Positions 13,354 to 41,607 of a DNA stretch of 58,896 nucleotides are shown piece by piece; the first letter of the stretch is position 1, and each line of letters opens with the position of its first letter. The stretch comes from an uncultured Candidatus Bathyarchaeia archaeon (GTDB lineage: Archaea > Thermoproteota > Bathyarchaeia > Bathyarchaeales > Bathyarchaeaceae), in the NCBI GenBank assembly GCA_964618655.1, contig CAZUFG010000001.1:1-58896 (forward strand), in the 5' to 3' direction. The translations under genes were made by a program, and so were the position numbers. The notes under the pieces were generated by a model. The model did not search any database, was not told the origin of the DNA, and was given only the letters and a program-made list of their open reading frames with translations.

Positions 13354-16236
13354 CTACTTCCAGCCGAATTTGCCTGCTAGTTTGATGGCGTCTAGGATGT
13401 TGACTGTGTTGTCGCTGTTTATGTCGGCTCTTGCGTTCCAGAGTCTGGTTCCTATCTTGGCTCCGAAGTTTGCTGCAAGCGCGATGGCGTCTAGGATGTT
13501 GACTTGGATGTCTAGGTTCAGGTCTTCAGGTAGGGTTACCCAGAAGTGGAAGGTGACGTTTATCCATTGACATACCCATGGGTTGGGTACTAGTTCATAG
13601 TGTGCTGGTGTGCCGCCAAGGAATTCGCTCAGAGTCCACGTGTATTCCCATATTTCTGGTGGACCCTTTACGTGGACGGCTACTTTTATGTCGTAGGTGC
13701 CTTTTGGCCATGATGGCATTGAGTAGTATGGATACGGCAGATCGTACAAGTCTATATGTTCTTTGTCTGCGTAGGCGACTTCGATTAGTGGAGGATCACA
13801 GACTGGAAAACCAACATACGGAGGCACTGGGTTGATTGTTTCTACGTGGTACCATCCGTCTTTCGTCGGTTCCTCGAAGCAATGCAATAAGAGTTTGTCG
13901 CATGGGTCAAGTTTTCCGTTGCAGTTGTCTTCCCAGTCCAAAACTAGGTAATGCACTGACGCGTTCGGGCAGCCACCGATCTGTTCAAATTCGGTGGTTA
14001 CTGGATCTGACATGTTGAGGTAAGTGATGTTGTGTAGGTACGCGTTTGTGCCTGGCAGGTGAATGTTTTCCGGATAGCCTGGTAGGAGGTGTTCTCCTGA
14101 CGCGTTGCTGAAGTAGACGTATTTGTCTATCCAGAGTATGCTTCCGTGGCATTGGTTCATGAACATGTTCTGGATCTGTAGGGTGAACTTGAGGTCAGCA
14201 GCCGCCGTGCCTGGTAGGAATACTTGTAGACCCTTGTATTTCTCTGGCGCATCTATTTGAGGGTCAACGTCCATTGGGCATGAGTGGAAGAACAGCGGGT
14301 TCCTCACGAGCGTCGCATGGTCAGCTGACGCGTAGTCAACGAGCTTGTAGGACCCTGTGCCTATGTAGTTGGGGTCTGGTCCCGGTATAGTGCGTGTTAT
14401 TAAGTCGGCGTCGCCTTTTTCAAGGATGTCCTTCCATATGTGCCTTGGTATGATCGGGACGGCTATTCCAACCCACATTTTCGCCCAGGTGGATCTGTAG
14501 TTGTACAGTATGACAGCGGTGCACGGGTCAACCTTGTAGACGCTCTTGGCTGTTGGGTACACGTAGGAGCTGAACCAAGGCTCTGGTAAGCCGCGTTTCG
14601 CCAGCGTGTATGAAACGTCCATGAACGAGAACACCACGTCGTCAGCTGTTAGATCATAACCGTCTGACCACTTGATTCCAGGTCTTAGCGTGACCTTGAC
14701 TCCTGTTTTAATCTTACCATCTGCGGGGTCAGTCCATTCGAACATGTCTACTTTCTTCGCCAGCCACGGTATGAAATCAGCTTGTGTGTTGGGGTCACGC
14801 ATCAGCAAAGTGTCGTAGATATTGCCTAGAATTTCCATGTCCCAGTACCAGCTTGCGTATATGATGTTTAGTTGTTCCACGTCTGAGACTTTCCATCCGT
14901 AGTACAGGGTCATGTTTTGGCCGTCGCCTATCTCGTAGCCGGCTGGGTGAGCGTTAAGTTTCGTCCAGTAGCTGTTCTCTCCGAAGCCAAGCTCGTTAAC
15001 TATGCCCTTCCACATGAGGCCTCTATACTTGTTTTGTCCGTCATCTGGCGCGGTCATTACGCCGCCGTTGCCTCCAGTGTAGGCCCTAGAAATGGCTTTT
15101 GGAGATGCTGTTGACATGCAAGGTATGGCGCCGACGGCGGTTGGTGCTGCCCACTCTTCTTGGGCCCGCAAGCAAGCGTCTCTCATTTCTGCCGTCGTTT
15201 TGTTCCCTGGAAACTTGATTATCTCTGCGTATGGTTGGTATGCCGTGATGTTGTAGTGGCCGTAGTTATTGGGTCTACCTGGGTGCCAGTACCCTGCAAT
15301 ATGGTATAGGTCGTATAGGTAGTCTGGTTCTGGACCCATGAAGATCCAGCCGCCAGTGTACATGTCGTAGTTCTTCTCGATCATAACCTTTGCACTGCAT
15401 GTGGCTCTGTCGACCAGGTGGAGGTCGACATCAATCTTTATTGGACCTGCCCCTAATATTACACTCAGCCTAGCTGCCATGTCGTTTCGCCACGCATGAT
15501 CAGACCTTCCATAGATTACTAATTTGAACTCTTCGCCGGCATCATATTTCCCATTTTTCGGATAAGTGGTGCCGTCTGCCTTAGGCTTGCCGTCCCAATA
15601 CCTCCAAGCATACTCGCTCGCATTGTATATGAAGCCGTCATCTGTCAGTATTTCGGCTGCCATTGTCACGTTAAACGGATGCGTTAAAGACTCTAACGCC
15701 CCGCCAGGCCTTATGTCAGGATGTACCCAATAAGCCATGTAAGGCAGGATCAGGGTGTACATCGGAATTGAAAGCCCTTCGGTGACGTTAGCTACGATAT
15801 CCGCTCGGTTCACACAGTGGGCTAATGCATGTCTGAAACTCGCCTCGCTGGTAGCGCTGGGAAACGCTGGGTTCGGACTGTCATCCATCAGCTTTGGATA
15901 CGGGTTGTTGTTAATATCCCAAAGGTAGTAGCCTCTTTCGCTACCCGGCGGTGGAAATGGAATAATTTTGAGAGTCGCGTTATTTGTGCCCCACCTGTCT
16001 ATGAAGTACCGGAGTAAACTCCAGTCTACTATGTCAAACTGGCCCTTCTCCATAGCTGTGAAACAAAGAACGTCAGTGGCATACATCCTAATGATAAGCC
16101 GATCCACTCTCGGTCCAAACCTCTCAAACTTGAGGTCTTCATTGCATTCAGGGTAAACCCATGCAAATGACGGTGCCGAGCTCAAAAGCAGCAAAGCTAT
16201 ACTAAGAAGTCCAACAAACGCTATCTTCGTATTCAT
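13354..16236 (-). CDS. ABC transporter solute-binding protein, family 5 (OppA/DppA-type peptide binding), with a C-terminal extra domain and a dockerin
   Basis: 960-aa ORF. The signal peptide MNTKIAFVGLLSIALLLLSSAPSFA has no lipobox. Family-5 hallmarks include LRPGIKWSDGYDLTADDVVFSF, and the size is typical. It is divergently adjacent to the OppB/C/D/F-type genes. The C-terminal 57 aa form a dockerin. Confidence 0.8.
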   Translation of the reverse strand: MNTKIAFVGLLSIALLLLSSAPSFAWVYPECNEDLKFERFGPRVDRLIIRMYATDVLCFTAMEKGQFDIVDWSLLRYFIDRWGTNNATLKIIPFPPPGSERGYYLWDINNNPYPKLMDDSPNPAFPSATSEASFRHALAHCVNRADIVANVTEGLSIPMYTLILPYMAYWVHPDIRPGGALESLTHPFNVTMAAEILTDDGFIYNASEYAWRYWDGKPKADGTTYPKNGKYDAGEEFKLVIYGRSDHAWRNDMAARLSVILGAGPIKIDVDLHLVDRATCSAKVMIEKNYDMYTGGWIFMGPEPDYLYDLYHIAGYWHPGRPNNYGHYNITAYQPYAEIIKFPGNKTTAEMRDACLRAQEEWAAPTAVGAIPCMSTASPKAISRAYTGGNGGVMTAPDDGQNKYRGLMWKGIVNELGFGENSYWTKLNAHPAGYEIGDGQNMTLYYGWKVSDVEQLNIIYASWYWDMEILGNIYDTLLMRDPNTQADFIPWLAKKVDMFEWTDPADGKIKTGVKVTLRPGIKWSDGYDLTADDVVFSFMDVSYTLAKRGLPEPWFSSYVYPTAKSVYKVDPCTAVILYNYRSTWAKMWVGIAVPIIPRHIWKDILEKGDADLITRTIPGPDPNYIGTGSYKLVDYASADHATLVRNPLFFHSCPMDVDPQIDAPEKYKGLQVFLPGTAAADLKFTLQIQNMFMNQCHGSILWIDKYVYFSNASGEHLLPGYPENIHLPGTNAYLHNITYLNMSDPVTTEFEQIGGCPNASVHYLVLDWEDNCNGKLDPCDKLLLHCFEEPTKDGWYHVETINPVPPYVGFPVCDPPLIEVAYADKEHIDLYDLPYPYYSMPSWPKGTYDIKVAVHVKGPPEIWEYTWTLSEFLGGTPAHYELVPNPWVCQWINVTFHFWVTLPEDLNLDIQVNILDAIALAANFGAKIGTRLWNARADINSDNTVNILDAIKLAGKFGWK
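13357..13527 (-). other. Dockerin module, divergent class A
   Basis: EDLNLDIQVNILDAIALAANFGAKIGTRLWNARADINSDNTVNILDAIKLAGKFGWK. The first loop keeps positions D1, N3, D5, N9 and D12. The second loop is canonical. Confidence 0.8.
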
Positions 16237-25358: not shown

Positions 25359-28300
25359 CTAGTACTTATTTCCGAAGTTGTTTGCGATTAGGATGAAGTC
25401 AAGAATGTTTATTTTGTTGTCTCTGTTGATATCGGCTAGTGAATTCCATTTTGGATGGCTTGGGTAAGAGCCGAAAGCAGATGAGGCTAAAATACAGTCT
25501 AATATGTTAACGGTTTTGTCATTGTTCACATCGCCTACCATTTTGAGTTTAACATAACCATCAATGAAGACATTATTATCTTGATCAGTTTCTCCAGGAA
25601 CAACGCTGGCTTCAGCCCACATTGTGTAATTGACGTAAAGTTGCAGACCTGTAGTGTTCCAACAGAATGTTAAAGTCATCTCTTCGCCAGTATGTAGATC
25701 AAAAACGGTTTTTGTTTCTATAGGTGTGCTCTCGTAGTAGGCGGTGACGGTGAAGGTTTCAGTTGAGTTCCCGACGTTTTTAGCCGTAACATTGATAGAA
25801 ATCATCCAGCCTGCGTAAGCTTCTGTTACGGATGGAACAACGCTAATTACCGCCACATCACGCATTAACGGAATAGTCATTGCAACCTCCGCTAAACCGT
25901 CAAGGGAACTGTGGGAAATGATCTCCCCCTCTGGATCCGCGAGTATCGTTTCACAGAGGTCTAATATGGAGTTACCTAATTCTCTAGCTTTGAATTGGAC
26001 TGTCACCAATATCCCGCTTCCAGTTTTCCCCGTTTCATTGCCTACATAATTGAACAACGAGAATGCAAAGTGTATACAACCATGTGTAGCATTGTATGCG
26101 TTGTTAGTCTCATTTATCCACACGTATATGTTGCGCGGATCAATTTCAGGCGTCAGAAAGTGTCCTGCTGGAAGCGTAACGCCACGTCCTTCTAAGATGT
26201 CGTTTTTATAAAACAGCTTGAACTCATATCCATAGAGATCTGAGACATCAGTGACTGTTATGTTTATCGTGAAGACTTCATCACGTATTACTATGCTTTG
26301 TATAGGGTCTATAGAAATGTATGTTCCTGTTACGGTGAACACCTGAACACTCATCATCACAACATTGTTTTTTGTGATAGCCTCGTCGTGAACTGGAGGT
26401 GCGTAAGCTGTCACGTTATATATGCCTTCAACTGTTGGGGTCCATAGATAGTTTAGCACATAGGAGGAATTGACTAACAATTCGGGAATCATTGCAGAGG
26501 CAACAATGCTACCATTAATTAGTAGATACAATTCTAAACCGGTTTCGTTACTTAGCCCATCGTTATAAACCGTTGCTTTAAGAATTGTCGGGGTGTTAGG
26601 CTTAAGACGTGGAGGCGCCCTCAATGAAACCACGAGCTCGTGTTCGTATCGAACGGGAGGAGGACGATATAGGATAACCCATTCGATCATATTTGTTAGA
26701 AGCTTCTCGGCTCCTATTCTGTCTTCATAGTAAAGGTGCCAGTCTGGGTCTTGTTGGGTTATTACGATCCGTCCACTGCCATATGTGGTTGCTAGCGTAA
26801 TCGGCGCTGAGATTTCTATACCCCATGCCAATGCCTTCCAAACATGGTGGACAAAGAATCCGTGGTAGGACATGCCCCAATTGCTAAGTTGAGCGTCGGT
26901 CAAACTGAACATAACAGGGTGGGTCGGGTCGAGAATCTGAACATTGTTTCCAGCAAATCCGTACGAGTTAACCCATAACGGGAGCCAATCCCACCTATTG
27001 CTCTCATAGAACTCCGAGAGGGCAACAATTCCGTTGCCAGCAGCCACCCAATCTGCTATCTCTGATGCACGGGCAAGCAACGCATCAACCACAGCGTCTC
27101 CTGGGCTCCATCCAACGAACAAAACGTTATACTGATACAGGTCAACTGTGGCAAATTCAGCTGGCGTGACTAAAGTATAGTTGTATCCCAACATGTCGAG
27201 GGCACCAGTATCCTCAGGCCAAGGCGTATCGACCACTAAGAGTCTTGGCGGATAGCGAACATGCACCATCTCGCTTACAACATTATTTGCTGTGTAGGTT
27301 TCGTTAAGTACCGAAGGTGCATATGCTGTAACATTGTATGTTCCCCCTATTGTTGGAGTCCACAGACAACTGAATGTAAAAGACTGCCCAGTTAACAAAT
27401 CTGGAACTATCACAGAGTTAAGGACGGTGCTATTAATCATCAACTGCAACTCCACGTTGGTTTCGTTGTTTAGTCCTTGGTTGTGAACAGTCGCATTAAG
27501 CATAACTGAAGTATCAGGCTCCAAGAATGCTGGAGCCTCTAGAGTCAAAGCAAGGTCATGCTGATATCGAATGTATGGTGTAGCCCATTCGATCATGTTT
27601 TTTAAAAGCTTCCCGGCTCCAAGTACATCGTTGTAGTAAAAGTGAAAGTCTGGGTCTTGATCAGTTATCACAATTCGTCCACTGCCGTACGTTGCCGCCA
27701 ACGTGATGGAGTAGCCAGCTTCTATTCCCTGAGCCAACGCCGTCCAATCTGCATGATAGCTGTAGAAGTAGCCATGATATGAGAACGACCAATAGCTAAG
27801 TTCAGCGTCGGTCAGATTGAACAGCACAGGGTGGGTTGGATCGAGAATGTGAACATTGTCTCCAGTATATCCGTACGAGTTAACCCATAACGGGAGCCAT
27901 GCCCACCTATTGCTCTCGTAGAACTCTGACAGGGCAACAATTCCGTTGCCAGCAGCCACCCAACCTGCGATTTCCGATGCGCGGGCAACCAACGCATTGA
28001 CTACATCATCTCCTGGCGTCCAACCAACGAATAGGATGTTAAACCTGTAAAGGTCGACTGTAGCGAATTCAGTTGGTGAGACTAATGTGTATTCGTATCC
28101 TAATCTATCAAGAACACCTGTGTCCTCAGGCACCGGAGTATCGATAACTAAGAGTTTTGGTGCACATCGGACACGCACCATCTGGGTTGCCACATTATTC
28201 TCCATGACCTCTTCACCAGGCACTGGAGGTGCATAGGCTGTCACGTTGTATGTTCCTTCAACAGTTGGGACCCAAAGATAGCTTAGCCTATAAGACTCTC

Positions 28301-31300
28301 CTACGAGTAGTTCGGGAATGACGACGAAATTAACAATAGTGCCATTAATCATTAATTGTAGCTCAACACTAGTCTCATTGTTCAATCCAAAGTTGCGGAC
28401 AGTTGCGTTCAGCAGCACCGAATTAATGGGCTCAAGAGAGGCTGGAGCCTTTAAAGTTACGGCGACATCATGTTCATATTTTTTGGGCATGTAGAGTAAA
28501 CTGTTTTCTAGTATTAGGCTGAGGCGGCGCTTGTAGGCCCATTCAAGCGTTTGGGACGAAGCGACTATGAAGCCTGACCCGTATCCAAATTCTAAGTATG
28601 CTGGCATTCTTGTGGAATCTTCAATTATTATGATATGAGCATCTGCGGGATAGACACTGAAGTATCCATGTACTGCATAATTCCAATTGTCAAGTTCCGC
28701 TTCGGTGATCATGTTAGGCGTGGTCAACACGGGATGCGTTGGATCCACAACAGTAACATATTGCCCATAGTAACTGGCCCACTGCAACCCTCCAGGGAGC
28801 GGACCCACCCATCGTCCACCATGCCAGCCTCCGTCTGCCGCATGAATCTCCAATATGCCACCATTATTCACGTAATCCTCAAACCACCATCGATAAGTAT
28901 CCATGCCATCGTAGAAGGCCTGATCCTGGTCCGAAGCGATGACTACTTTTGTAAAAGTGCTTAAATTAACTCTGCCAAAATCGCTTGAACTAAACACAAC
29001 ATAGGGAACGCCGTAACGGTCAAGAGCTTCCTCATTTGATGGATAGTCCCACGGGTTCCAATTCTGAAACAAAGCCACAATAAGAGTAGAAACAATGACT
29101 TTTACTGATTTGACGTTGTTTGTTATGTCATCTTCGCCATACACCGGAAAAGCATAAGCTGTTATGTTGTATATTCCTTCAATAGTTGGAGTCCAAAGAT
29201 GGCCAAGGGTGTAAGAATCTCCAGCCCATAGCTCTCGAATCGTGGTTGAGTCAACGATAGCATCGTTAATTAATAATTGGAGTTCTACATTGGTTTCGTT
29301 ACTCAATCCCATATTTGAAACGGTCGCGTTCAATAACGCAGATTGGCCTGGTTTAAGCGCTTCCGGCGCTTCCAAAGACACGCCTAGTTCATGTTGAGGC
29401 TTTTGGTAACGTGACCATGTTATGGCGTTGTATAGTAGTTGCAGGTGATGGTGATAGTAGGCTGGTATAACTTCTAGCCATGGAGAAATGTACACTAAGC
29501 CTCTGTACGTGACTATTGCGCTTTCTTGATAGTGCCCAAGTGCAAGATATTTGCCCTCCACCAATTCGTTTGAATCCCATCGCCCGTCGAAAGGAAGTGC
29601 AGTTCCGACTTGTGGAAAAACCAGCGGGTTTGGAACATTAGCGAAGATAGGATGCGTTGTGTTCACTAGATGCAAAAGATCCGTTTGCGTTGCACTCCAC
29701 GTTGCGGTTTCGTTCATCCCAAACAGTGGTGCAAGCTTGTTGTTGTTTGGAACCCAGTAATAAAGCGTTCCCGCCGTGGCTATTAGACCGTGCCCCTCAA
29801 GAACATATCGTTTGATTGCTTCGATTTCAGAGTCTATGAACTGCCACCCCATCCCAGGATCGTAGGCACACGAAATAATCAAAACATCTGCTTCTGTCGA
29901 GGCAATATCCTCGTAGGTGATAACCTCTTTGTTTAAAGTCGTATAATCAATGTAGACCATGGTGTCGCCAAACATATGCCATTCATTGTTCAGCACTTGC
30001 CAATTAGTGATTATGTTGCCTTGAATGTTGCCTGCAGAATGCAACACAACAGCCTTCAACGGAAATCCAACATAGACATATTTCCAGACTACATTGTTTT
30101 CCACACTTGTTTCGCCGGGCACTGGCACCACGTAAAGCGTAACGTTGTATAATCCTTCAACTGTTGGATTCCATGTGAGACTAACTGATGTCGAGTTCCC
30201 ACTGGCAAGGGAGCCTATCAACGTAGAGTCTACCACGGTGTCGTTTGCTAGCAGTTGCACTGATACATCGGTTTCGTCATTATCTCCGAAATTAAGTATA
30301 GTAGCGTTTACGATTGCTAAAGCACCAGGTTCCACATAGGGCGGGGTTCTCCATTCATAAGCTATCATTTCATGGGCTGCCGGAGTCTGCTCCACAGCCT
30401 TTCTCGCGTTTATTCTTCCATATCCATAGTATACGTCGAAACCAGGGTCGCCCAAGTCATTAGCGGTGTATCGTAGCCACAGCCTCACCCAATCTCGTGT
30501 CTTGTTTGGATAGCGGCTCCATACAAGGGCAGCCACGCCCGAAACATGCGGAGTAGCCATGGAAGTGCCACTCCAAGACTCATAACCCCAAGGAACCGTT
30601 GAATGTATGGAGACTCCAGGTGCGGCTAGTTCAATCCATTCACCCCAGTTTGAAAATGAAGCTTTGCTGTCATACTGATCTGTCGCAGCCACAGCGATGA
30701 CTTCGTCGTAGCCTGCTGGATACAGCTTCATGTTTGTATTGTCATTTCCTGCAGCTGCGATCACCAGCACTCCGGCGTCATAAGCATACCTAACGGCCTC
30801 ATGTACTAGTTCGCTGTCGCTATACCCTCCTAAGCTCATGCTAATTATGTCAGCTCCGCTGTCCGTCGCGTTTATGATGCCATTTGCAATCCAGTCCCAG
30901 TATCCCCCGCCAGCGTTGTTTAAAACTTTTTCAGCCATAATCCGAACTTGCGCCAGCCCAGCAATGCCTATGCCATTATTTAAAACAGCTGAAATTATGC
31001 CTGCGCAGTGAGTGCCGTGGCCGTGATCATCCCAAGGGTCAGCATCCATATTCACCCAATCGTAGCCCAGGGCGACATAGTTTGCTGCAAGGTCAGGGTG
31101 GGTGTAGTCGATGCCTGTGTCGACAACAGCTACAAGAACTGAGGGGTCGCCTACCGTTGTGTTCCATGCCCAATCCGCCTCTATCTTCTGCGGCCCCCAT
31201 TGCAGGTTCCAATATGGGTCGTTTGGAACAAATTGAGCTTGAACCTTCATGTCGGGCTCTACGTAGCTTGCTAACCCTACAGTGTGTACCTCTTCTACAA

Positions 31301-31754
31301 AAGCCGTCACCGACGCTAATAAAAGCTCGACAACCGCCGCCCTAACTTGGCCTCCAATTGAAACAGTGTTAACAATTTCAGCTTGGTGTTTAGCCGCTAT
31401 TTTCTCTAGTTCAAGGAAGCTGGTAGGTTCCTCGCTGTCGACTCCAACTATTAGTCTAGTCTTATTGCCGTCTATGTAGGCGAATTTGCTCCATTCGCTT
31501 GTGCTGTTGAAGTCCCATTTATCCCCGCTATCGCGCGAAGTCTGACTGGGGCTTTCTAAAGTCTCCTCTTGACTGGCATCTGGTTTACTTTCAAAAACAT
31601 TTCGCTGGTTTTTATCAAAACTTTCCGGAAAATCCTTACCGAGAATACCGTTTTCATCGTTTTCTGCCAATGATGGCTTTGCGGTAAATGCTATGCTTAA
31701 CGTGCTCATGAGAATTAATGTCAACATTAGAAGACTGATTATTCTCTTTTTCAT
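25359..31754 (-). CDS. Giant secreted S8 subtilisin-family protease. Domain order: I9-like propeptide, S8 domain, four (CARDB + ~200-aa alpha/beta module) units, a further CARDB, a cohesin, a CARDB and a class C dockerin.
   Basis: 2131-aa ORF with a signal peptide. The catalytic triad lies in VAVVDTGIDYTHPDL (Asp212, about nt 31119-31121), HGHGTHCAGII and SGTSMATPHVSG. The S8 domain spans about 30375-31232. CARDB-like units read LNATV.N.G.NNET.VELQL..N...V......L..G.S......W.PT.EG.YN.T.Y. Cohesin: FTINITVTDVSDLYGYEFKLFYKNDILEGRGVTLPAGHFL...GSGILVTVQFKA (about 25900-26340). Confidence 0.85.
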   Translation of the reverse strand: MKKRIISLLMLTLILMSTLSIAFTAKPSLAENDENGILGKDFPESFDKNQRNVFESKPDASQEETLESPSQTSRDSGDKWDFNSTSEWSKFAYIDGNKTRLIVGVDSEEPTSFLELEKIAAKHQAEIVNTVSIGGQVRAAVVELLLASVTAFVEEVHTVGLASYVEPDMKVQAQFVPNDPYWNLQWGPQKIEADWAWNTTVGDPSVLVAVVDTGIDYTHPDLAANYVALGYDWVNMDADPWDDHGHGTHCAGIISAVLNNGIGIAGLAQVRIMAEKVLNNAGGGYWDWIANGIINATDSGADIISMSLGGYSDSELVHEAVRYAYDAGVLVIAAAGNDNTNMKLYPAGYDEVIAVAATDQYDSKASFSNWGEWIELAAPGVSIHSTVPWGYESWSGTSMATPHVSGVAALVWSRYPNKTRDWVRLWLRYTANDLGDPGFDVYYGYGRINARKAVEQTPAAHEMIAYEWRTPPYVEPGALAIVNATILNFGDNDETDVSVQLLANDTVVDSTLIGSLASGNSTSVSLTWNPTVEGLYNVTLYVVPVPGETSVENNVVWKYVYVGFPLKAVVLHSAGNIQGNIITNWQVLNNEWHMFGDTMVYIDYTTLNKEVITYEDIASTEADVLIISCAYDPGMGWQFIDSEIEAIKRYVLEGHGLIATAGTLYYWVPNNNKLAPLFGMNETATWSATQTDLLHLVNTTHPIFANVPNPLVFPQVGTALPFDGRWDSNELVEGKYLALGHYQESAIVTYRGLVYISPWLEVIPAYYHHHLQLLYNAITWSRYQKPQHELGVSLEAPEALKPGQSALLNATVSNMGLSNETNVELQLLINDAIVDSTTIRELWAGDSYTLGHLWTPTIEGIYNITAYAFPVYGEDDITNNVKSVKVIVSTLIVALFQNWNPWDYPSNEEALDRYGVPYVVFSSSDFGRVNLSTFTKVVIASDQDQAFYDGMDTYRWWFEDYVNNGGILEIHAADGGWHGGRWVGPLPGGLQWASYYGQYVTVVDPTHPVLTTPNMITEAELDNWNYAVHGYFSVYPADAHIIIIEDSTRMPAYLEFGYGSGFIVASSQTLEWAYKRRLSLILENSLLYMPKKYEHDVAVTLKAPASLEPINSVLLNATVRNFGLNNETSVELQLMINGTIVNFVVIPELLVGESYRLSYLWVPTVEGTYNVTAYAPPVPGEEVMENNVATQMVRVRCAPKLLVIDTPVPEDTGVLDRLGYEYTLVSPTEFATVDLYRFNILFVGWTPGDDVVNALVARASEIAGWVAAGNGIVALSEFYESNRWAWLPLWVNSYGYTGDNVHILDPTHPVLFNLTDAELSYWSFSYHGYFYSYHADWTALAQGIEAGYSITLAATYGSGRIVITDQDPDFHFYYNDVLGAGKLLKNMIEWATPYIRYQHDLALTLEAPAFLEPDTSVMLNATVHNQGLNNETNVELQLMINSTVLNSVIVPDLLTGQSFTFSCLWTPTIGGTYNVTAYAPSVLNETYTANNVVSEMVHVRYPPRLLVVDTPWPEDTGALDMLGYNYTLVTPAEFATVDLYQYNVLFVGWSPGDAVVDALLARASEIADWVAAGNGIVALSEFYESNRWDWLPLWVNSYGFAGNNVQILDPTHPVMFSLTDAQLSNWGMSYHGFFVHHVWKALAWGIEISAPITLATTYGSGRIVITQQDPDWHLYYEDRIGAEKLLTNMIEWVILYRPPPVRYEHELVVSLRAPPRLKPNTPTILKATVYNDGLSNETGLELYLLINGSIVASAMIPELLVNSSYVLNYLWTPTVEGIYNVTAYAPPVHDEAITKNNVVMMSVQVFTVTGTYISIDPIQSIVIRDEVFTINITVTDVSDLYGYEFKLFYKNDILEGRGVTLPAGHFLTPEIDPRNIYVWINETNNAYNATHGCIHFAFSLFNYVGNETGKTGSGILVTVQFKARELGNSILDLCETILADPEGEIISHSSLDGLAEVAMTIPLMRDVAVISVVPSVTEAYAGWMISINVTAKNVGNSTETFTVTAYYESTPIETKTVFDLHTGEEMTLTFCWNTTGLQLYVNYTMWAEASVVPGETDQDNNVFIDGYVKLKMVGDVNNDKTVNILDCILASSAFGSYPSHPKWNSLADINRDNKINILDFILIANNFGNKY
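25362..25535 (-). other. Dockerin module, class C
   Basis: GDVNNDKTVNILDCILASSAFGSYPSHPKWNSLADINRDNKINILDFILIANNFGNKY. Confidence 0.9.
26643..28472 (-). repeat. Two tandem ~915-bp coding repeats inside the protease gene (26643-27560 and 27561-28472). More divergent copies lie at 28473-29393 and 29394-30374.
   Basis: The encoded ~305-aa units, HDLALTLEAPAFLEPDTSVMLNATVHNQGLNNETNVELQLMINST... and HDVAVTLKAPASLEPINSVLLNATVRNFGLNNETSVELQLMINGT..., are collinear. Long stretches are identical, for example AAGNGIVALSEFYESNRW.WLPLWVNSYG. Near-identical DNA runs occur at about 27025-27085 and 27930-27990. Confidence 0.85.
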
Positions 31755-34950: not shown

Positions 34951-35070
34951 ACAAGCCTACAGCATCCACAAAACACAAGTCACAAACCAATCCAGCCACA
35001 CTCCACACACTCACACAACCGATCAACAACTCTACCACAAACAGCACACTCACCCATCAGCAAACACCTA
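34951..35070. repeat. Strand-asymmetric low-complexity tract, C/A-rich on the plus strand and G/T-rich on the minus strand
   Basis: By my count these 120 nt contain 7 G and 12 T (101 A+C). An example stretch is cacaaaccaatccagccacactccacacactcacacaacc. It lies 3' of the 35143-35664 gene, after an oligo-T run (35096-35107 on the plus strand as a-runs). Confidence 0.7.
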
Positions 35071-35142
35071 AGACTAGGCTCTCCTCAGCGTGCCTAAAAT
35101 AAAAAAACATGATGTTGATGTGTATCGCTCGCGCAATGGCAA

Positions 35143-35664: not shown

Positions 35665-35722
35665 CTCCCCTCTCTACTTCTCATAAACAGATAGAACCCG
35701 TGCAAAACCATGCTCTTTTTGC

Positions 35723-35750
35723 TTTAAAACACTTGTGAAACTATCTTCTA
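35723..35750 (-). promoter_or_regulatory. Island promoter: TATA-like GTTTTAAA (35723-35730) plus box TAGAAGATAGTTTCA (35736-35750)
   Basis: The gap is 5 nt. The TATA box lies about 59 nt upstream of start 35664. Confidence 0.5.
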
Positions 35751-35948
35751 GTGGCACGCACTAATACCCGGATAATTTGTGTGTTTGCGTGTGTAGCGCG
35801 CCCAAGATTACACTTTAATTGGGCTTTGACAACCTCAAAGTTCAACAAATCAAGAAGTAGGACCCGCGCGCTGCCTCTTGCCGATCACGGATGTGGCCTA
35901 AAAAAGAGGGGAGTTATGGAGATGTTGCCACTAAAACTTGGTCACTCA

Positions 35949-36878
35949 TCAGACTGCAGGGTTGAATATGTGCGGTGGAACACCATCATATGCGCGATTC
36001 TCGCCAAGATTTCTGGAGATGACGTTGTAGTTTACCAATTCTGGGGGATAGCAGAAAACGAAATCATAACTGCTTCTTCTGAGATCGTTGAAACCAATCA
36101 TGTTGCCTAACATATACGTCTGCGGAGGTAGCGTTTGATTCCATGCAGCCATTGCTATGGCGAATGTCCACCCAATCCAACCTGTCATCACAATTCTGTT
36201 GTGAACAACTTTGTTACCCGTCACCTGCCCTCCCCACGATGACAGGGCGATGCCAGCATTGATGTCGATGCTGACAGGGAAGTCCGCGGTTATTTTGTTG
36301 AAGGCAACAAGATTATCATTGGCTGGAAGATTGAGTATCCAAGATGAGACGATCCAGATTCCTAATCCTCCAGTAGTAAGATTCGTCAGTCCATTTATGT
36401 CATTATATCTTATGACCCATCTGTTGCCACACACGCATGTAACTCCCTGGAAAGGCGCATTCATAATGTTGTGCTCAACAGTCACTTCGTCAACAACTCT
36501 ACCAAAGACTGGCAGGTCCACAAAAAACGTAAATCCGCTTATGGTTGCCCCACTCGAGGTCCATGCCTCAAGAAAGAACCCTATGTTGATTGTGGAATCC
36601 AAACCGTAGGGCGGCCCATCCACGATGACTGCTCCGCCTTCTCCCATGATTTCGACAGACTTGTTCACTATTGCCCCGTAATATTCGCCAGGTCCAACAA
36701 TGATTTTGTCTCCTGGCAGTGCGGAGTTAATAGCCTCTTGAATGGTTGGATAATTATCTGGAACTTTGATTATCTTTGGTTCGGCACCTACTGACACTGT
36801 AGCTATGGTTACGGTCAGCAGAAACACGGTCATTATTGTTGCCAATGCACGTGATGCATTTCTTGTTTCTATTCTCAT
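35949..36878 (-). CDS. Secreted parallel beta-helix (NosD/CASH-like) protein
   Basis: Track ORF 35949-36902 starts at TTG. I prefer ATG 36878 (MRIETRNASRALATIMTVFLLTVTIATVSVGA), which has GAGGA 8 nt upstream. The N-cap motif YPTIQEAINSALPGDKIIVGPGEYYGAIVNKSVEIMG is typical of the family. Confidence 0.7.
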   Translation of the reverse strand: MRIETRNASRALATIMTVFLLTVTIATVSVGAEPKIIKVPDNYPTIQEAINSALPGDKIIVGPGEYYGAIVNKSVEIMGEGGAVIVDGPPYGLDSTINIGFFLEAWTSSGATISGFTFFVDLPVFGRVVDEVTVEHNIMNAPFQGVTCVCGNRWVIRYNDINGLTNLTTGGLGIWIVSSWILNLPANDNLVAFNKITADFPVSIDINAGIALSSWGGQVTGNKVVHNRIVMTGWIGWTFAIAMAAWNQTLPPQTYMLGNMIGFNDLRRSSYDFVFCYPPELVNYNVISRNLGENRAYDGVPPHIFNPAV

Positions 36879-36924
36879 TTTTAAATCCTCTTGAACATTC
36901 AAACAACTATTACGTATGCAGTAG

Positions 36925-36951
36925 TTATATGCCTACTGAAACTATTTTCTA
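36925..36951 (-). promoter_or_regulatory. Island promoter: TATA (ATATAA, 36925-36930) plus box TAGAAAATAGTTTCA (36937-36951)
   Basis: The gap is 6 nt. The TATA box lies 47 nt upstream of ATG 36878. Confidence 0.55.
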
Positions 36952-37008
36952 TAATCTTCCTCCACATCTAAAAGCGCGCGCTAGCTCACGTTACTGAAAG
37001 CGCACACT

Positions 37009-37413
37009 TCACTTCTTTCTGAGCTCGTTGTTTCTGCATGTGTAGCAGCGTAGGCCCTGAATCCAAGCTTGAGAAAGGCGACAGTAAACTTTGCCGTCGC
37101 TTGTAGCTCCGGCTAGGTGAAGCCAACACAACACCCGCATCGGACTAGCAGCAGCAGAATCCAAGTACGTAGCAATCTTCAACTGCGGATTACCCTCACC
37201 ATGACGCCGATTATACTCCTTCACAGCATTCATCAACACTTTACTAAAGCCTCTAGAACCAGCTTCACGCCTAGCGATTTCCCTAAACTGCACAAAATCC
37301 GCCACATCACAAGGCTCAACAGAAAAACTGGAAACAAAAGCCTTCGTCAAACTGGATGCTGATGCGAAAACGCTATGAAGCAAATGGAACAACAAGCGCC
37401 ATACTACAAACAA
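37009..37413 (-). CDS. Small hypothetical protein, possibly ribbon-helix-helix-like at the N-terminus with a Cys-rich C-terminus. The start is uncertain.
   Basis: The 134-aa track ORF has a TTG start and no internal ATG near the N-terminus. SSFSVE-DVADFVQFREIARRE-GFSKVLMNAVKEYNRRH fits a strand-helix-helix pattern. The C-terminus has four Cys (VLCW...VYCRLSQAWIQGLRCYTCRNN). A shorter TTG start (..TKAFVSSFSV) is plausible. Confidence 0.4.
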   Translation of the reverse strand: MFVVWRLLFHLLHSVFASASSLTKAFVSSFSVEPCDVADFVQFREIARREAGSRGFSKVLMNAVKEYNRRHGEGNPQLKIATYLDSAAASPMRVLCWLHLAGATSDGKVYCRLSQAWIQGLRCYTCRNNELRKK

Positions 37414-37541
37414 ACACTTTCAGAGAACATCCATACGAAATAAGCACTATTTTGATAGACCTTCCAGACGCTTCCATAAACATTCTTGTCAAAGGTAACA
37501 ACAAAATAGCTCAATGGCTCTGGAAGCTCATAACAGATGAC

Positions 37542-38321
37542 TTAAAGAGAGGTCAATTTGTCGGTTCCAGAAGGCTGGATGATGGTGGTGTTGCCGGTGC
37601 CTTGGAGCGTTAGGCTCGTATTGATGACTACCTGTTCGTCATAAGTTCCCTCGTAGGCGTATATTGTTTGTCCTGGGGTTGCAGCGTTTACGGCTGCTTG
37701 AATTGTGTCGAAGAAGCTGGCTGGGTCAAGTTCTGCCGTGTTCCAAATGGTTAAGTCAATCTTTACTGGCCAATCACCAACAGAGATTATGACATCGCCT
37801 GGAGTATAGCTTTGGCTAAGATCCCAATCTTCAAAGACGATTACTTCAATATCTGTTGGTCCAATGCCAGCAGGGCGGTTAACGATTGTCTTGATATAGG
37901 TAGTGCTTGAGAAGCCAGGTAGTAAGTAATAGTTGGGAGCACCAACAATCAACTCCAATTGATAGCCTGGATAAAGCGTCGGACACACGACAGGTCCAGC
38001 CGGCCACCAAGTAATGCCATCAAGTGACCACAGAAACGTTAAGTCTGCAGGAATAATTCCCGGACCGACATTTTCTCTGTAGAAAACTCCGGTAAGCCAT
38101 GGTGCTGGTGGGCTTCCACCAACGTTCGTTACAGTTCCCTTTACTGTGACTTTTGAGCCTGCAGTAGCGCCTAGTGTCGCATAAATTTGATTTGCAGCGT
38201 CGTTTACTATTAGGCTTGGCCCAGTTACGCTAGCTTCAACAGGTTTTACGTTTAGTATGAGTGGCATCGTGCTTAAGAGAAGCATTAGAAGCATTGATAT
38301 CGATACTAACTGCTTTTTCAT
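37542..38321 (-). pseudogene. 5' fragment of the split beta-helix/cohesin/dockerin gene: signal peptide, ~190-aa beta-rich domain and the first beta-helix cap, then a premature stop at the insertion boundary
   Basis: 259-aa ORF. Signal peptide: MKKQLVSISMLLMLLLSTMPLILNVKPVEA. It ends ...FFDTIQAAVNAATPGQTIYAYEGTYDEQVVINTSLTLQGTGNTTIIQPSGTDKLTSL*, that is directly after the N-cap motif that opens multi-rung beta-helices in its paralogues. Confidence 0.6.
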
Positions 38322-38370
38322 TTCTCCTTTCTCCTCATATGAGGGTGAACATAATTGTTTTCTAGTGAGA

Positions 38371-38396
38371 TATTAATTTTATGGAAAAATTTTCTA
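38371..38396 (-). promoter_or_regulatory. Island promoter: TATA-like AAATTAATA (38371-38378) plus box TAGAAAATTTTTCCA (38382-38396)
   Basis: The TATA box lies about 50 nt upstream of ATG 38321. SD-like sequence: GAGGAGAAAGGAGAA. Confidence 0.5.
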
Positions 38397-38839
38397 TAAC
38401 CAATTGTTCTAATTTTTTTTATCATTTAATACATAAAACGTGGTCAATGACGTTGCCTAATGGATTGTATCTTATCATTCGATAAATAAAATGAAGTCAT
38501 TTACAAAAAATGTTCCAAAAACTCGCACATAGAATTACATTATTAGTAAAATGACAAAGCTTTATAAATGGAAATCATACACACAGTTAAGCGGGGAAAG
38601 AGGTAGCCATAAAACCAATTGCGCCTGCGCAATAACAGTAAAACCCTTTCTCTTCTCTCCCTTCTCTTTCCCCCACCCTTCATAATCTATGGAAAAGAAT
38701 GTTCTTGTTTTTGGCGAAAATTCCAGCTGTTAAGGTTTTGAATAAACTTTTTCATACCTGTTTAATTATGTCTACTGATTGAAATTTGGCGTGGTAAGTT
38801 TTCATTAAGCTTAATCTAATACTTTGCTGTTAGTTTCAA

Positions 38840-38854
38840 AGAAACTATTTTCTG
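38840..38854. promoter_or_regulatory. Orphan copy of the island palindromic box (minus strand CAGAAAATAGTTTCT), about 50 nt upstream of the TATA box of the wHTH-TM-cohesin gene
   Basis: Its centre matches the 36937-36951 box (AGAAAATAGTTTC). No TATA box sits at the usual offset on the minus strand. This position would suit autoregulation of the divergent plus-strand gene. Confidence 0.35.
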
Positions 38855-38903
38855 AAAGGGCATTTTACACGATTTTTCTCCAACAGTTTTTTTTACACCA
38901 ACG

Positions 38904-38911
38904 TTTATAAA
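38904..38911 (+). promoter_or_regulatory. TATA box (TTTATAAA) of the wHTH-TM-cohesin gene
   Basis: It lies 36-43 nt upstream of ATG 38947. The SD-like GGGGAG lies at 38935-38940. Confidence 0.55.
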
Positions 38912-38946
38912 CACGCGAATTCCCAGCTTTATCAGGGGAGAACTGA

Positions 38947-39783
38947 ATGCCTCAAGTAAGATGTCCACATTGTGGAACAACTATGAATTTGGAGAATCGC
39001 AGAGAAACGGATTTCAGCCTTATTCTAGGGGCGTTACATAGCAGAGAGAGAAGTTTTTCGGAACTGCTTAGAATAACTGGATTGCCTAGAAAAACTCTTT
39101 ACCTCAGACTAAAGGAACTATGCAAGACAGATGCCATTATCAAAAATAAACTATACTACTTGAATGAGGCAAACCCCCATAAAGAATGGGAGAAAAAAAT
39201 AATGCCCGGAAATTCAAGACTACTTAATAACAAAAAAGCAATAGTGCTACTCTTACTCCTATGCATAGGTCTACCAGTAACTACAAACGTTATTGCCACG
39301 TTCTTCCAAAGTCCACCTCCGACGCCCTCTGAACCAGAACCTTTAGGCTACCTCACCGCAATTGTAACAGCAAATAATGTTTCAAATGTTTATGGCTGGC
39401 AAGTGGGTTTACGTTTCAACTCCACAAACCTCAAAGTTATAGACGTTAGACCTGGAGGCTTCCTTACAGAAACAGAACAAAACACCGACGTTGCTCAAAA
39501 TGAGACGTCAGGTTATGAAATTACAAAGAAGACTCTATTCTGCTATAACACGATCGACAGCGACATATTACTTATTGGTCAGACTTTGTTGGGAGAGGAC
39601 ACTTCTGAGACAAATCATAGTGGTCCTTTGGTGATCATAAAATTTGGATACTACTATGCGTATCAAGAACCTGAGCTCATCTTGAATGAAAACCTTGGAT
39701 ATTACAATACAATGCTTCTAAGAGCGGATTGCTCAGAAATCCCACTAAATGAAAACACAATAACCATACGTTGCTTGCCTTAA
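38947..39783 (+). CDS. Membrane-tethered putative transcription regulator: CPHC knuckle, winged HTH (cytoplasmic), a single TM helix, a Pro-rich linker and an extracellular cohesin-like domain
   Basis: 278-aa ORF. N-terminus: MPQVRCPHCG. The wHTH-like segment is RSFSELLRITGLPRKTLYLRLKELCKTDAIIKNKLYYL (about 39004-39172). A basic stretch NNKK precedes the TM helix AIVLLLLLCIGLPVTTNVIATFF (39238-39306). The linker is QSPPPTPSEPEP. The cohesin-like domain reads LGYLTAIVTANNVSNVYGWQVGLRFNSTNLKVIDVRPGGFL...GPLVIIKFGY (39343-39780) and has the same core pattern as the island cohesins. Confidence 0.65.
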   Translation: MPQVRCPHCGTTMNLENRRETDFSLILGALHSRERSFSELLRITGLPRKTLYLRLKELCKTDAIIKNKLYYLNEANPHKEWEKKIMPGNSRLLNNKKAIVLLLLLCIGLPVTTNVIATFFQSPPPTPSEPEPLGYLTAIVTANNVSNVYGWQVGLRFNSTNLKVIDVRPGGFLTETEQNTDVAQNETSGYEITKKTLFCYNTIDSDILLIGQTLLGEDTSETNHSGPLVIIKFGYYYAYQEPELILNENLGYYNTMLLRADCSEIPLNENTITIRCLP

Positions 39784-39846: not shown

Positions 39847-41607
39847 CTATTCCGCGATTTTTTTAAGTTGATTTTCATACATTTCAACGATTTCTTTTAC
39901 TGTCGTTGCATCTTCAGCCGCTTTGTCAAGCCTATAGTTGCCTGTAAATCTCGGAAATCTGATAGCCAGCCCGCTTCCTTTACGAATGGCATCAATGGCG
40001 CATGTGTGAATCGGGCTTAATGTTATTTCAGCTCCTAAAATTTCAATTACCACAACGGGTTCAAACCAGACATCCGCCTTAAGTGTGGACTGAACTCTCG
40101 GATGTCGATGAGGTATTCGATGTTTTTCCATCATTTTGGGCAGTTTCGCCAAGTCTTCGTCTGTGAAGCCTGTGCCGCATTTTGTGACTGTTTTGAAGAC
40201 ATCTTCATCTGGGTCGTAGGCGGCTAAAAGTAACGCTCCATATGTTCCCCCTCGTTTTCCCCTTCCATGAAAGGCTCCAACTACCACGAGGTCAACGGTG
40301 TCGGTCATCTCGCTTTTGTAGTCGCGCTTATACTTTATCCAGAGCCATCCTCTCGCTCCGGCTTGGTAAATTGCATCCTCGTTTATTGATTTGCAGACTA
40401 GTCCCTCGCATCCGTTTTCAACGGCTTTTTCGAAAAACCGTTCCAACTCCTCTGGGTTGTCTGTGATTATGTACTCCGCCGTTCTAACACGGTCACTTGG
40501 TTCAATAATCTTCTCAAGATATTTGTGCCTAACAGGATAGGGCTTCAAGGTTAAGTCTTTCCCATCCACGTAAAGAGTGTCAAACATGAAAAGCGAGACA
40601 GGATACTCTTCTATGGCCTTTTTAATGCCGTACTTTCGTCTCCGATGCATCAGTTCTTGAAAGGGTCGCATCTCGCCCGTGTCCGCATCAATGGCGACGC
40701 ATTCTGCCTCCAGAATGGCGTCTTTAGCTCTTACATATTTTGCGAACAATTCGCTACCGTCTGGATATTGATCACTGATATCTTCGAGTCGCCGAGAGAA
40801 GAGAGTAACAGTGTCTCCTTTCTTGTGAGCTTGTATCCTTTCGCCGTCATATTTGAACTCGGCAATGCACTTGCCTCCAAGCTTTTCAAGAATCTCTTGA
40901 GGTGAGCCTAGTCGCTCTGCCAGCATGGGTCGGATGGGCTCTCCGAGCGAAACCTCAAACTTTTTAATGCCTTCGGTTCCTTTCTCAGCCACAGTTTTGG
41001 CTACTCTGCCTAAATCAGAAGAAATGTTATACGCTCGCTCAATGTCTTCTCTGGCTTCTTTTCCGCCGCCATATGCGATGGCTAAGGCGTCGAGAACTGT
41101 CATGTCCGCAATCCCTAATCGCAGTTCTCCTGTGACTGTTCGGAGGAGGTATTTTGCCTCTTTAGGGGTGGCGCTGGTTAACAGCCCAGCTAGAAGGTTG
41201 ATTTTCTGGTCCATGGAGCCTGGACCCGTTGCCTTCGCCATTTTGTCTAGAGTTTCGTATACTTTTTGTACGGTTAGGGGCTCCTGAAAAAGCACAACTT
41301 GGGCTCTCTTTCCCAAGAATTTTTGAGCGGTCTCGCCTAGGTCTCCGCTTTTCTTCATATCTTCCTCGATTTCTTTTTCACTGTGGCCTGTTGCCTTAGC
41401 AACTGCTCGGATGGCTAGCTTCTCAGCAACTCCAATCTCGATTCCAACAAAGTCTGGGTAGAGTTTCCCTTGCGTTAGGTAAACAACTTTATCTATTAGG
41501 TCTTTTGGAGTCTGTTTAAGAAACTCGACTAGATAATCGGTCATTTCCAATCGCTTTGTTGTAGCTTCAATTTTTTCGTAGGCGTCTGCAATACGCGCGT
41601 ACCGCAA
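39847..41607 (-). CDS. lig: ATP-dependent DNA ligase (archaeal/eukaryotic Lig1 family)
   Basis: 586-aa ORF. The adenylation motif is AEFKYDGERIQAH (active-site Lys at about 40853-40855). Further family motifs are EGLVCK, WLWIKYKRDY and LRFPRF. The track start is TTG. Confidence 0.92.
   Translation of the reverse strand: MRYARIADAYEKIEATTKRLEMTDYLVEFLKQTPKDLIDKVVYLTQGKLYPDFVGIEIGVAEKLAIRAVAKATGHSEKEIEEDMKKSGDLGETAQKFLGKRAQVVLFQEPLTVQKVYETLDKMAKATGPGSMDQKINLLAGLLTSATPKEAKYLLRTVTGELRLGIADMTVLDALAIAYGGGKEAREDIERAYNISSDLGRVAKTVAEKGTEGIKKFEVSLGEPIRPMLAERLGSPQEILEKLGGKCIAEFKYDGERIQAHKKGDTVTLFSRRLEDISDQYPDGSELFAKYVRAKDAILEAECVAIDADTGEMRPFQELMHRRRKYGIKKAIEEYPVSLFMFDTLYVDGKDLTLKPYPVRHKYLEKIIEPSDRVRTAEYIITDNPEELERFFEKAVENGCEGLVCKSINEDAIYQAGARGWLWIKYKRDYKSEMTDTVDLVVVGAFHGRGKRGGTYGALLLAAYDPDEDVFKTVTKCGTGFTDEDLAKLPKMMEKHRIPHRHPRVQSTLKADVWFEPVVVIEILGAEITLSPIHTCAIDAIRKGSGLAIRFPRFTGNYRLDKAAEDATTVKEIVEMYENQLKKIAE

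Follow-up and report, generated by a model that had tools for sequence, protein, structure and literature searches.

A membrane-tethered winged-helix protein with an extracellular cohesin domain is a candidate autoregulated transcription regulator in Bathyarchaeia

Transmembrane transcription regulators (TTRs), in which a predicted DNA-binding domain and at least one predicted transmembrane (TM) region share one polypeptide, numbered 1,384 in the archaeal part of a published census, with about 4 per archaeal genome and 56% of all TTRs being single-pass (Demey et al. 2023, PMC10269533). In regulators of the ToxR/CadC type a cytoplasmic winged helix at the N-terminus is joined by one TM helix to an extracytoplasmic input domain at the C-terminus, and they are taken to act on DNA from the membrane. 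ArnR and ArnR1 of Sulfolobus acidocaldarius are, as experiments described in PMC6396743 show, membrane-bound archaeal one-component transcription factors that are oligomeric and bind promoters of cell-surface structure genes. RsgI of Clostridium thermocellum spans the membrane and couples an extracellular module of the cellulosome toolbox to transcription of extracellular-system genes, and the bacterial anchoring scaffoldins (SdbA, OlpB, ScaB/ScaC) hold dockerin components by surface-attached cohesins. Dockerin-tagged binding proteins of the OppA/NikA type are reported from anaerobic methanotrophic (ANME) archaea in passages of PMC9012536. Here we compare with these systems a 278-aa protein encoded next to an island of cohesin and dockerin genes in a 58.9-kb stretch of DNA (the window) from an uncultured Bathyarchaeia sediment archaeon. 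Its architecture, known from the sequence and from predicted models, consists from N- to C-terminus of a CPxC knuckle, a winged helix, a short basic tether, a TM helix, a Pro-rich linker and a cohesin (Table 1). We regard it as a predicted single-pass N-in/C-out TTR, i.e. a one-component system, with a cohesin ectodomain.

The protein belongs to an unannotated family that was seen only in Bathyarchaeia. A search with its N-terminal 95 residues against 1.84 billion representatives (50%-identity clusters) recovered the N-terminal module in 67 clusters, and nearly all matches with E<1e-10 had the same architecture. Twenty-four full-length homologs (E 1e-174 to 1e-24) had the identical order of parts, one of them annotated as a hypothetical protein of a Bathyarchaeota metagenome-assembled genome (MAG), and all nine loci found in GTDB representative genomes were from Bathyarchaeota/Bathyarchaeia MAGs. 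A single TM peak was observed in 59 of the 68 relatives examined, and most family proteins carried the CPxCG knuckle around position 6, LPRKT around position 46 and one TM helix close to residue 100. Protein lengths clustered at about 260, 360-395 and 470 aa. In the longer proteins the TM helix and the cohesin are separated by one or two inserted PKD domains, which gives two or three architectures within the family, all ending in a cohesin. A second subfamily of 464-476 aa with two inserted PKD domains was observed at three of the related loci, which we number from L001 (L014, 9995-11425; L015, 6975-8369; L016, 9980-11404). One of these, L015 (DATKLC010000059.1), is an 8.5-kb contig in a bacterial (Krumholzibacteriaceae) MAG carrying a typical family gene with archaeal promoter elements, and this contig is probably misbinned.

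In the N-terminal family alignment, C6, P7, C9 and G10 were invariant, with CPHC occupying residues 6-9 of the window protein. Only two cysteines were conserved, and a complete four-cysteine site within a single chain is therefore absent; a zinc site shared across two chains would be speculation. A zinc ribbon was also considered for the N-terminus and rejected, one CPxC knuckle being conserved and C59 occurring in only about two-thirds of the members. AlphaFold2, run on the family alignment, placed a beta-hairpin at residues 3-14, helices at residues 15-32, 37-44 and 48-60, and a wing at residues 64-72 (strands 64-67 and 69-72), with predicted local distance difference test (pLDDT) values of about 90 across residues 21-70. 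This predicted model contains the three helices, H1-H2-H3, and the beta-hairpin wing of winged helix-turn-helix (wHTH) regulators. Foldseek matched the isolated N-terminal model to members of the ArsR/SmtB group (CzrA, SmtB, BigR, CadC), the MarR group (ZitR, AdcR, OhrR), the HxlR group (YodB) and the PadR group (LmrR), with E-values of 5e-3 to 2e-2, probabilities of about 1.0 and template modeling scores of 0.5-0.65. Thirty-two of 68 relatives matched HTH_5 (E<=0.01), and the ArsR, HxlR and MarR Pfam families were matched among the relatives, several of them weakly. The recognition helix, LPRKTL..RLK, was basic and near-invariant in the family.

A Kyte-Doolittle peak of 2.44 was found at residues 98-116, and each of 23 aligned members had one such peak. 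Within these members the N-terminal flank of the helix carried 3-6 lysine or arginine residues and the C-terminal flank 0-3, mostly 0-1. Across the family the net charge was +7 to +15 in the N-terminal part and -4 to -16 in the C-terminal part, and N-X-S/T sequons occurred at 0.13 per 100 aa in the former versus 1.30 in the latter (in the window protein, four C-terminal of the TM helix and none in the cytoplasmic part). The flank charges and the sequon distribution fit a predicted N-in/C-out topology, and it is a DNA-binding domain and a TM region, each predicted, in one polypeptide that define a TTR. Several columns within the helix were also conserved (C106 in 14, G108 in 16, P110 in 16 and A117 in 22 of the 23 members). 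Mean pairwise identity was 64% in the knuckle and wHTH, as against 35% in both the cohesin and the TM helix. The 64% identity marks the cytoplasmic domain as the most constrained part, and the retention of C106, G108, P110 and A117 suggests that the TM helix does more than hold the protein in the membrane.

The C-terminal domain was recognized as a cohesin both by sequence profile and by its nine-stranded jelly-roll fold. On its own the protein scored 19.1 bits with Pfam PF00963, below the cutoff of 24.1 (E=0.0016), while this family was matched at E<=0.01 (best, 3.4e-10) by 18 of the 23 close relatives and, in the wider set, by 47 of 68, and the family profile matched cohesins of A. cellulolyticus ScaB in the PDB (3l8q, E=1.5e-10). 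The AlphaFold2 model, a prediction and not a solved structure, was a nine-strand beta sandwich spanning residues 134-277 with pLDDT mostly 83-95. Against the PDB, the top 19 Foldseek matches were all type II cohesins, with E-values of 5e-6 to 1e-4, a probability of 1.0 and target template modeling scores of 0.30-0.60. BLASTP against the other cohesins of the window gave E-values of about 0.005 over short stretches. Recent copying from an island cohesin was considered and rejected on these weak matches.

An earlier first-pass annotation of the window had described much of this architecture, and most of its description was borne out. Translation reproduced the 278-aa open reading frame (ORF) on the plus strand, divergent from the minus-strand cluster on one side as described, and the linker that it had read as PPPTPSEPEP was present ahead of the C-terminal domain. 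The CPHC knuckle with an ArsR/MarR-like wHTH was upheld by the alignment, the AlphaFold2 model and Foldseek, the exact subfamily not being fixed. The basic stretch followed by a single TM helix with a cytoplasmic N-terminus agreed with the Kyte-Doolittle profile, the positive-inside flanks, the charges and the sequons. A structural search of the C-terminal domain against cohesins, which it had proposed, returned the type II cohesins above, and the database search for the wHTH, TM and cohesin architecture recovered the conserved family of 67 clusters. The "island cohesin core pattern" that it had assigned to this domain amounted to a generic cohesin resemblance only.

The evidence for a regulatory role comes from the gene's own promoter, where we found two conserved operators of the same motif family, a distal O1 and a proximal O2. 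O1 is the sole exact GTTTC-N3-GAAAC in the window, and a position weight matrix (PWM) for O1 scored it at 23.4 bits, with the next best site in the window at <=10.7. The seven loci L001-L007 contained exactly one exact O1 copy each, just upstream of the ortholog. Among 15 loci drawn from two subfamilies, 13 had O1, placed at -101 to -125 relative to the ATG. O2 was fully palindromic in L014 and L015, where the two perfect palindromes were 62-63 bp apart, and the gap from O2 to the TATA box was 5 nt in all 14 loci measured (L001, with a TTTATT variant, was not scored). The O1-to-O2 distance in the window was 53 bp. A distal site was recognizable in 33 of 49 distinct family promoters, at 22, 41-42, 52-53, 62-63 or 115 bp from O2, and in one subfamily the distal site was a second GTTTCTTTTACAC copy. 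At 10.5 bp per turn, these distances come to about 2, 4, 5, 6 and 11 turns, with a mean resultant length of 0.94. Spacing by whole helical turns is typical of one protein complex that touches both sites on the same DNA face, and the near confinement of the operators to promoters of a transcription factor gene family is typical of autoregulation. The recognition helix LPRKTL..RLK and the half-site GTTTC were near-invariant together. These sequence patterns point to a multimeric DNA binder that would autoregulate its gene, and the predicted DNA-binding role of the wHTH gains indirect support from these conserved, helically phased operators.

A metagenome collection scanned for GTTTCTTTTACAC-N5-TTTATA yielded 73 loci, and a family gene lay directly downstream in at least 41 of these 73 exact matches. 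The exact module (O2, 5 nt, TATA) recurred before only one other kind of gene, 39-40 nt from the start codon as is usual for it, and the product of this gene, of about 366 aa, matched Peptidase_M29 aminopeptidases (E=3.4e-24). This arrangement occurred on four Bathyarchaeia-like contigs in three divergent versions (L025/L065, L034 and L044; the L025 site is at 1174), and the upstream DNA was otherwise unrelated. The M29 aminopeptidase gene, with a product predicted to be cytoplasmic, is a candidate member of the regulon. The module was further observed before a gene for a 226-aa protein with no Pfam match, in two contigs of the same sequence (L033 and L064). A relaxed composite of O-site and TATA was scanned over 320 kb (the window and 17 related loci); within these 320 kb it was found before family genes only and never before adjacent cohesin, dockerin, NosD/beta-helix or Opp genes. 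A local regulon including island or Opp genes was rejected on this result and on the lack of a second site above chance for the PWM in the window.

We propose that the wHTH would bind O1 and O2 as a dimer of dimers kept together at the membrane, and that the gene would in this way be autoregulated. O2 abuts the region of the B recognition element and TATA box, and its occupancy would therefore control the access of TBP and TFB. In related genomes the M29 aminopeptidase gene would come under this control too, through the same O2 and TATA module. Outside the cell, the cohesin would dock a dockerin-tagged exoprotein, for which the best candidates may be a nearby dockerin-bearing OppA-type protein and an S8 protease. 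The OppA-type protein is the most attractive putative ligand because dockerin-tagged OppA proteins are known in archaea and such a protein would need a membrane-proximal partner. Docking would anchor the exoprotein at the membrane and would alter the clustering, oligomeric state or conformation of the regulator, and the conserved TM helix would relay the altered state to the occupancy of the operators. The physiological theme would likely be extracellular proteolysis and peptide uptake matched to intracellular peptide catabolism, not on/off switching of the island. We give this whole explanation, a membrane-tethered autoregulator with a cohesin input whose DNA binding, docking and signal transfer are each predicted, a probability of roughly one half. 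Its furthest-reaching part, in which cohesin-dockerin docking would serve as a transmembrane signal tuning the levels of the M29 aminopeptidase and of the regulator-anchor to the extracellular degrading assembly, is a tentative proposal that we rate as rather doubtful.

The genes around the regulator bear on its candidate ligands. Two cohesin/dockerin-rich clusters occur in the window, at 3486-16236 and 25359-38321, the latter on the minus strand and encoding secreted proteins. The seven dockerins counted in the first-pass annotation were all recovered as Dockerin_1 modules, borne by an S8 subtilase, PKD proteins, cohesin-dockerin adaptor proteins and the OppA-type binding protein. This OppA-type protein would presumably be held at the cell surface by a cohesin and not by a lipid or TM anchor. 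Opp and solute-binding protein genes adjoin family genes in L003, L005, L007, L008 and L010. Neighbors recurring down to about 32-35% identity included Opp/Dpp-type operons, OppA-type proteins (some with dockerins) and a giant S8-CARDB-dockerin protease, along with other dockerin proteins, NosD/beta-helix proteins and a Yip1-like membrane protein. We also observed that genes for DNA ligase (39847-41607), adenylosuccinate synthetase (46879-48063) and Rad50/Mre11 (52878-56166) are syntenic with the family gene in distant Bathyarchaeia (L005, L010, L014). The synteny with these housekeeping genes places the family gene in a stable core region, beside which the cohesin/dockerin clusters vary.

Table 1. 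Positions of the regulator gene, its protein domains, its promoter elements and related features in the window.
Feature	Position	Strand	Basis or remark
Coding sequence of the 278-aa membrane-tethered wHTH-cohesin protein	38947..39783	+	Stop codon included; 24 full-length homologs
N-terminal beta-hairpin with single CPxCG knuckle, residues 1-14 (C6, C9)	38947..38988	+	Strands 3-5 and 12-14 in models
Winged helix-turn-helix, residues 15-72; LPRKTL..RL invariant in its recognition helix	38989..39162	+	AlphaFold2, Foldseek, HTH_5 matches
Single TM helix, residues 96-119, preceded by K96, K97; conserved C-I-G-x-P kink, near-invariant A117	39232..39303	+	Kyte-Doolittle
Pro/Thr/Glu-rich extracellular linker PPPTPSEPEP, residues 123-132	39313..39342	+	From translation; conservation low, 23%
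Extracellular cohesin domain, residues 134-278	39346..39780	+	PDB profile, Foldseek, nine-strand model
Distal operator O1, perfect palindrome GTTTCAAAGAAAC, consensus aGTTTC-N3-GAAACt	38833..38845	.	PWM, alignment of promoters
Proximal operator O2, GTTTTTTTTACAC here, family consensus GTTTCTTTTACAC	38886..38898	.	Ends 5 nt upstream of TATA box
Archaeal TATA box TTTATAAA	38904..38911	+	TTTATA block conserved in 15 aligned promoters; starts 43 nt before ATG
Shine-Dalgarno-like GGGGAG	38935..38940	+	Read from sequence; orthologs have GGTGA or GGGGG at equivalent spot
Island promoter box positions	7920-7934, 8782-8796, 11127-11141, 13184-13198, 35736-35750, 36937-36951, 38382-38396	-	Also 3258-3272
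Box copy TAGAAAATTTTTCCA	38382..38396	-	5 nt upstream of TATA-like element of neighbor 37542..38321; 551 nt from family gene's ATG
OppA-type solute-binding protein, C-terminal dockerin, candidate ligand (inferred)	13354..16236	-	SBP_bac_5 + Dockerin_1
Opp permease/ATPase operon	16353-21642	+	Divergent from dockerin-bearing OppA-type gene
2131-aa S8 subtilase, 6 CARDB repeats + dockerin, candidate ligand (inferred)	25359..31754	-	2168-aa ortholog two genes from family gene, L003
ATP-dependent DNA ligase gene, neighbor on other side	39847..41607	-	

Several observations weigh against the proposed membrane-tethered autoregulator. Taken singly, the window protein fell under the Pfam thresholds for both the wHTH and the cohesin, the wHTH families all scoring below cutoff (HTH_20, 17.9 bits against 27; HxlR, 15.3 against 20.8; HTH_5, 12.7 against 22), and it could be placed in no single named wHTH subfamily above a curated threshold. 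The N-terminal sequence profile gave non-significant matches (E>=0.037) in the PDB, to aIF1, Rpo12 and Lrp-type proteins. With the AlphaFold2 model and Foldseek on one side and these Pfam scores and the non-significant PDB profile on the other, the wHTH fold is clear and the subfamily is not. The tether from the wing to the membrane is short, about 23 residues, and the TM helix had low confidence in the structure model. The operator spacing gave a Rayleigh p of about 2e-13, a value that ignores shared descent, and another conserved factor could be the binder of the operators. A natural variant that lacks the knuckle and wHTH (it starts MVKMPPSNKT and consists of TM helix, linker and cohesin; L047, L062 and L077) retains O2 and TATA, which means that O2 can be kept without a wHTH encoded in cis; these variant promoters had no obvious distal site. 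Housekeeping genes near the family gene (DNA ligase, Rad50 and adenylosuccinate synthetase) are also syntenic, and at the PKD-form locus L014 no dockerin gene was identified among the ORFs scanned within 10 kb. From this synteny and from L014, part of the neighborhood pattern may be attributed to inherited gene order.

The protein may instead be mainly an anchor, a membrane "scaffoldin" that holds dockerin proteins such as the OppA-type protein, with the TM helix standing in place of the SLH domains of bacterial anchoring scaffoldins and with a wHTH that would tune the synthesis of the protein itself while occupancy would not be sensed. The best structural matches of the cohesin were type II cohesins of anchoring and adaptor scaffoldins (SdbA, 2bm3; ScaB; ScaC), the dockerin-bearing binding protein of the adjacent Opp transporter needs a membrane-proximal cohesin, and there is the natural variant reduced to TM helix, linker and cohesin. 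The O-site regulon seen so far is also very small. However, the strongest constraint lies on the cytoplasmic domain, and the TM helix has conserved non-hydrophobic positions, both of which would be unexpected for a passive anchor; the shared O2 module at the M29 promoter further suggests regulation beyond the anchor gene. We consider a role mainly as an anchor unlikely.

Proteolytic release was considered as a different route of signaling, in which the protein would be an inactive, parked precursor and the binding or loss of a dockerin would lead to site-1 and intramembrane cleavage, after which the freed knuckle-wHTH would act on O1/O2 and on distant targets. Residues that destabilize a TM helix are common among substrates of intramembrane proteases, and G108-x-P110, in the outer half of the helix and present in 16 of 23 members, is of this type. 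Release would explain the reach to a distant M29 peptidase gene, and autoproteolysis is how RsgI signals according to passages of PMC10328401. On the other hand, no gene for S2P, a rhomboid or another intramembrane protease was found among the window ORFs scanned, and the related loci conserve none, a lone Rce1-like gene in L001 being the exception. The stretch from the TM helix to the cohesin is a 14-residue linker only, in which no autoproteolytic domain was detected, and the phased double operators fit a membrane-held multimer at least as well. Release by proteolysis therefore appears improbable.

We judge it equally improbable that the wHTH does not bind DNA and makes cytoplasmic protein-protein contacts, with O1 and O2 being bound by an unrelated soluble regulator of a small regulon that includes this gene and the M29 gene. 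Winged helices do also serve as protein-interaction modules, the wHTH-less variant retains O2 and TATA, and the N-terminal profile had no significant match to solved regulators. Yet the N-terminal part carries a net charge of +7 to +15, its basic recognition helix LPRKTL..RLK is invariant and its structural neighbors were nearly all DNA-binding repressors, while operators found almost exclusively at a family's own promoters follow the classic pattern of an autoregulated factor.

The first-pass annotation had further proposed that the wHTH binds a TAGAA-N5-TTCCA box and, through it, directly regulates the island. The box itself proved real and enriched, with 3 exact copies in the window against 0.16 expected and 16 copies at one mismatch against 5.4. 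It is an imperfect dyad, TAGAA-N5-TTC(C/T)A, that was observed 5-6 nt upstream of the TATA element in at least seven minus-strand promoters of the two clusters, an offset like that of O2, and there is a likeness between its right arm, TAGTTyCA, and O1's left arm, tAGTTTC(a/t). Diverged versions of the box, found by eye, occur at cohesin/dockerin promoters of other Bathyarchaeia (L006 and L001). The box copy near the gene, on the other hand, belongs to the promoter of the minus-strand neighbor (37542..38321), and the gene's own core promoter is without a box. The half-sites of the box are in swapped order and at different spacing (GAA..N5..TTC as opposed to TTC..N3..GAA), and the recognition helix and O1/O2 are near-invariant while the box drifts (TTCCA, TTCCT, TGCCA). 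Control of cohesin and dockerin genes by cohesin occupancy through this box is thus the most improbable of the alternatives, the gene's own operator (GTTTC-N3-GAAAC / GTTTCTTTTACAC) differing from it in half-site arrangement and spacing and no O1/O2-type site lying at any neighboring promoter, island genes included, in 320 kb. The box looks like the operator of a dedicated regulon. The evidence does not support direct island control by the wHTH-cohesin protein; peptide uptake and catabolism appear to be its more likely connection.

We also tried the box as a cross-genome marker and rejected it, a search of the first eight related loci for the exact box or T[AG]GAA-N5-TTC[CT]A having given one match, inside a ligase gene. 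A perfect box-type dyad, TAGAATATGTTTCTA, was observed at 52747-52761 near the start of an ORF (52460-52786) downstream of Rad50 and away from the clusters, and may be due to chance. The intergenic region upstream of the family gene (38322-38946, 625 bp) is unusually long, and Rfam and tRNA scans of the window returned nothing, leaving this region without a known RNA. It contains a 38-nt polypyrimidine tract at 38644-38681 that, read on the minus strand, resembles the purine-rich leaders of island genes and may be what is left of a lost gene start. The adjoining minus-strand gene at 37542-38321 (259 aa) shows similarity, 32% over 186 aa, to the N-terminal portion of an L003 CARDB-dockerin protein; its product ends within a segment similar to the start of NosD/beta-helix proteins, without a dockerin, and the gene may be truncated or fused. 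Elsewhere in this cluster, two minus-strand ORFs (31945-33159 and 33146-34501) overlap by 14 nt and both encode beta-helix repeats, the downstream one with a cohesin and a dockerin in addition; the pair may represent a single gene, interrupted by a frameshift or by an error of assembly.

If docking does serve as a transmembrane signal, the protein would be the first transcription factor with a cohesin-dockerin interaction as its input. Cohesin-dockerin pairs are known as structural glue, and from a cohesin fused directly to a DNA-binding domain it would follow that such pairs can pass information through a membrane as well. In anoxic sediments Bathyarchaeia rank with the most abundant archaea, and detrital protein is believed to supply part of their diet; a regulator linking a surface protease and peptide uptake to an aminopeptidase would be one of the earliest concrete proposals of a regulatory circuit in this group. 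With 278 aa and a 13-bp operator the system is compact, and the claims made for it can be checked in vitro without culturing. Given the high specificity of cohesin-dockerin pairs, synthetic biology could also make use of the protein as an orthogonal "protein-plug" sensor.

We return to the described systems with these results. The word "cohesin" is absent from the text and the text supplements of the TTR census (PMC10269533). In keeping with the first-pass annotation, which knew of no cohesin-coupled transcription factor, we found none described in the full-text literature searched or in the census supplements, the survey of Peer et al. 2009 lying outside that search. That annotation had also drawn comparisons with ToxR/CadC and RsgI, which hold as functional analogies, but membership in either group fails for want of an OmpR-type wHTH and of an anti-sigma domain. 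ToxR and CadC have an OmpR-type wHTH, whereas the wHTH here is ArsR/MarR/HxlR-like, is preceded by an additional CPxC knuckle and is joined to a cohesin input and not to a small-molecule or pH sensor. Trans_reg_C was not matched by the window protein at E<=10 and was not among the 25 families most often matched by the 68 relatives.

With ArnR and ArnR1 the protein shares the class of archaeal membrane-bound one-component transcription factors, as that class is drawn in the passages on them; no sequence relationship was detected, and the comparison is one by description only. ArnR has no cohesin, is not known to have a sizeable ectodomain and is controlled by cytoplasmic phosphorylation. RsgI differs in that it binds no DNA but a sigma factor, a kind of protein absent from archaea. 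It recognizes polysaccharide by a carbohydrate-binding module, PA14 or glycoside hydrolase domain and, according to passages of PMC10328401, signals by autoproteolysis, while the sensor here would recognize a dockerin, and peptide catabolism is the function to which the shared operator points. No Pfam or NCBIfam match to RsgI_N, a SigI-type domain or an autoproteolytic domain was found in the window protein.

The anchoring scaffoldins supply the closest structural matches to the cohesin. They are attached by SLH or sortase, neither of which was detected as a motif in the window protein, and the likeness is one of analogy only; here a TM helix serves for attachment, and the single cohesin is fused to a conserved cytoplasmic domain of DNA-binding type, which is found in no described scaffoldin. 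The non-cellulosomal systems of Archaeoglobus and ANME archaea resemble the island in that cohesins and dockerins are found on proteases, PKD/CARDB proteins and OppA-type proteins without cellulose degradation, but no coupling of a cohesin to a transcription factor is described in the passages on them in PMC9012536. We conclude that the protein is a new cohesin-coupled variant among the transmembrane transcription regulators, and the comparative evidence for a two-operator promoter dedicated to its gene is unusually clear.

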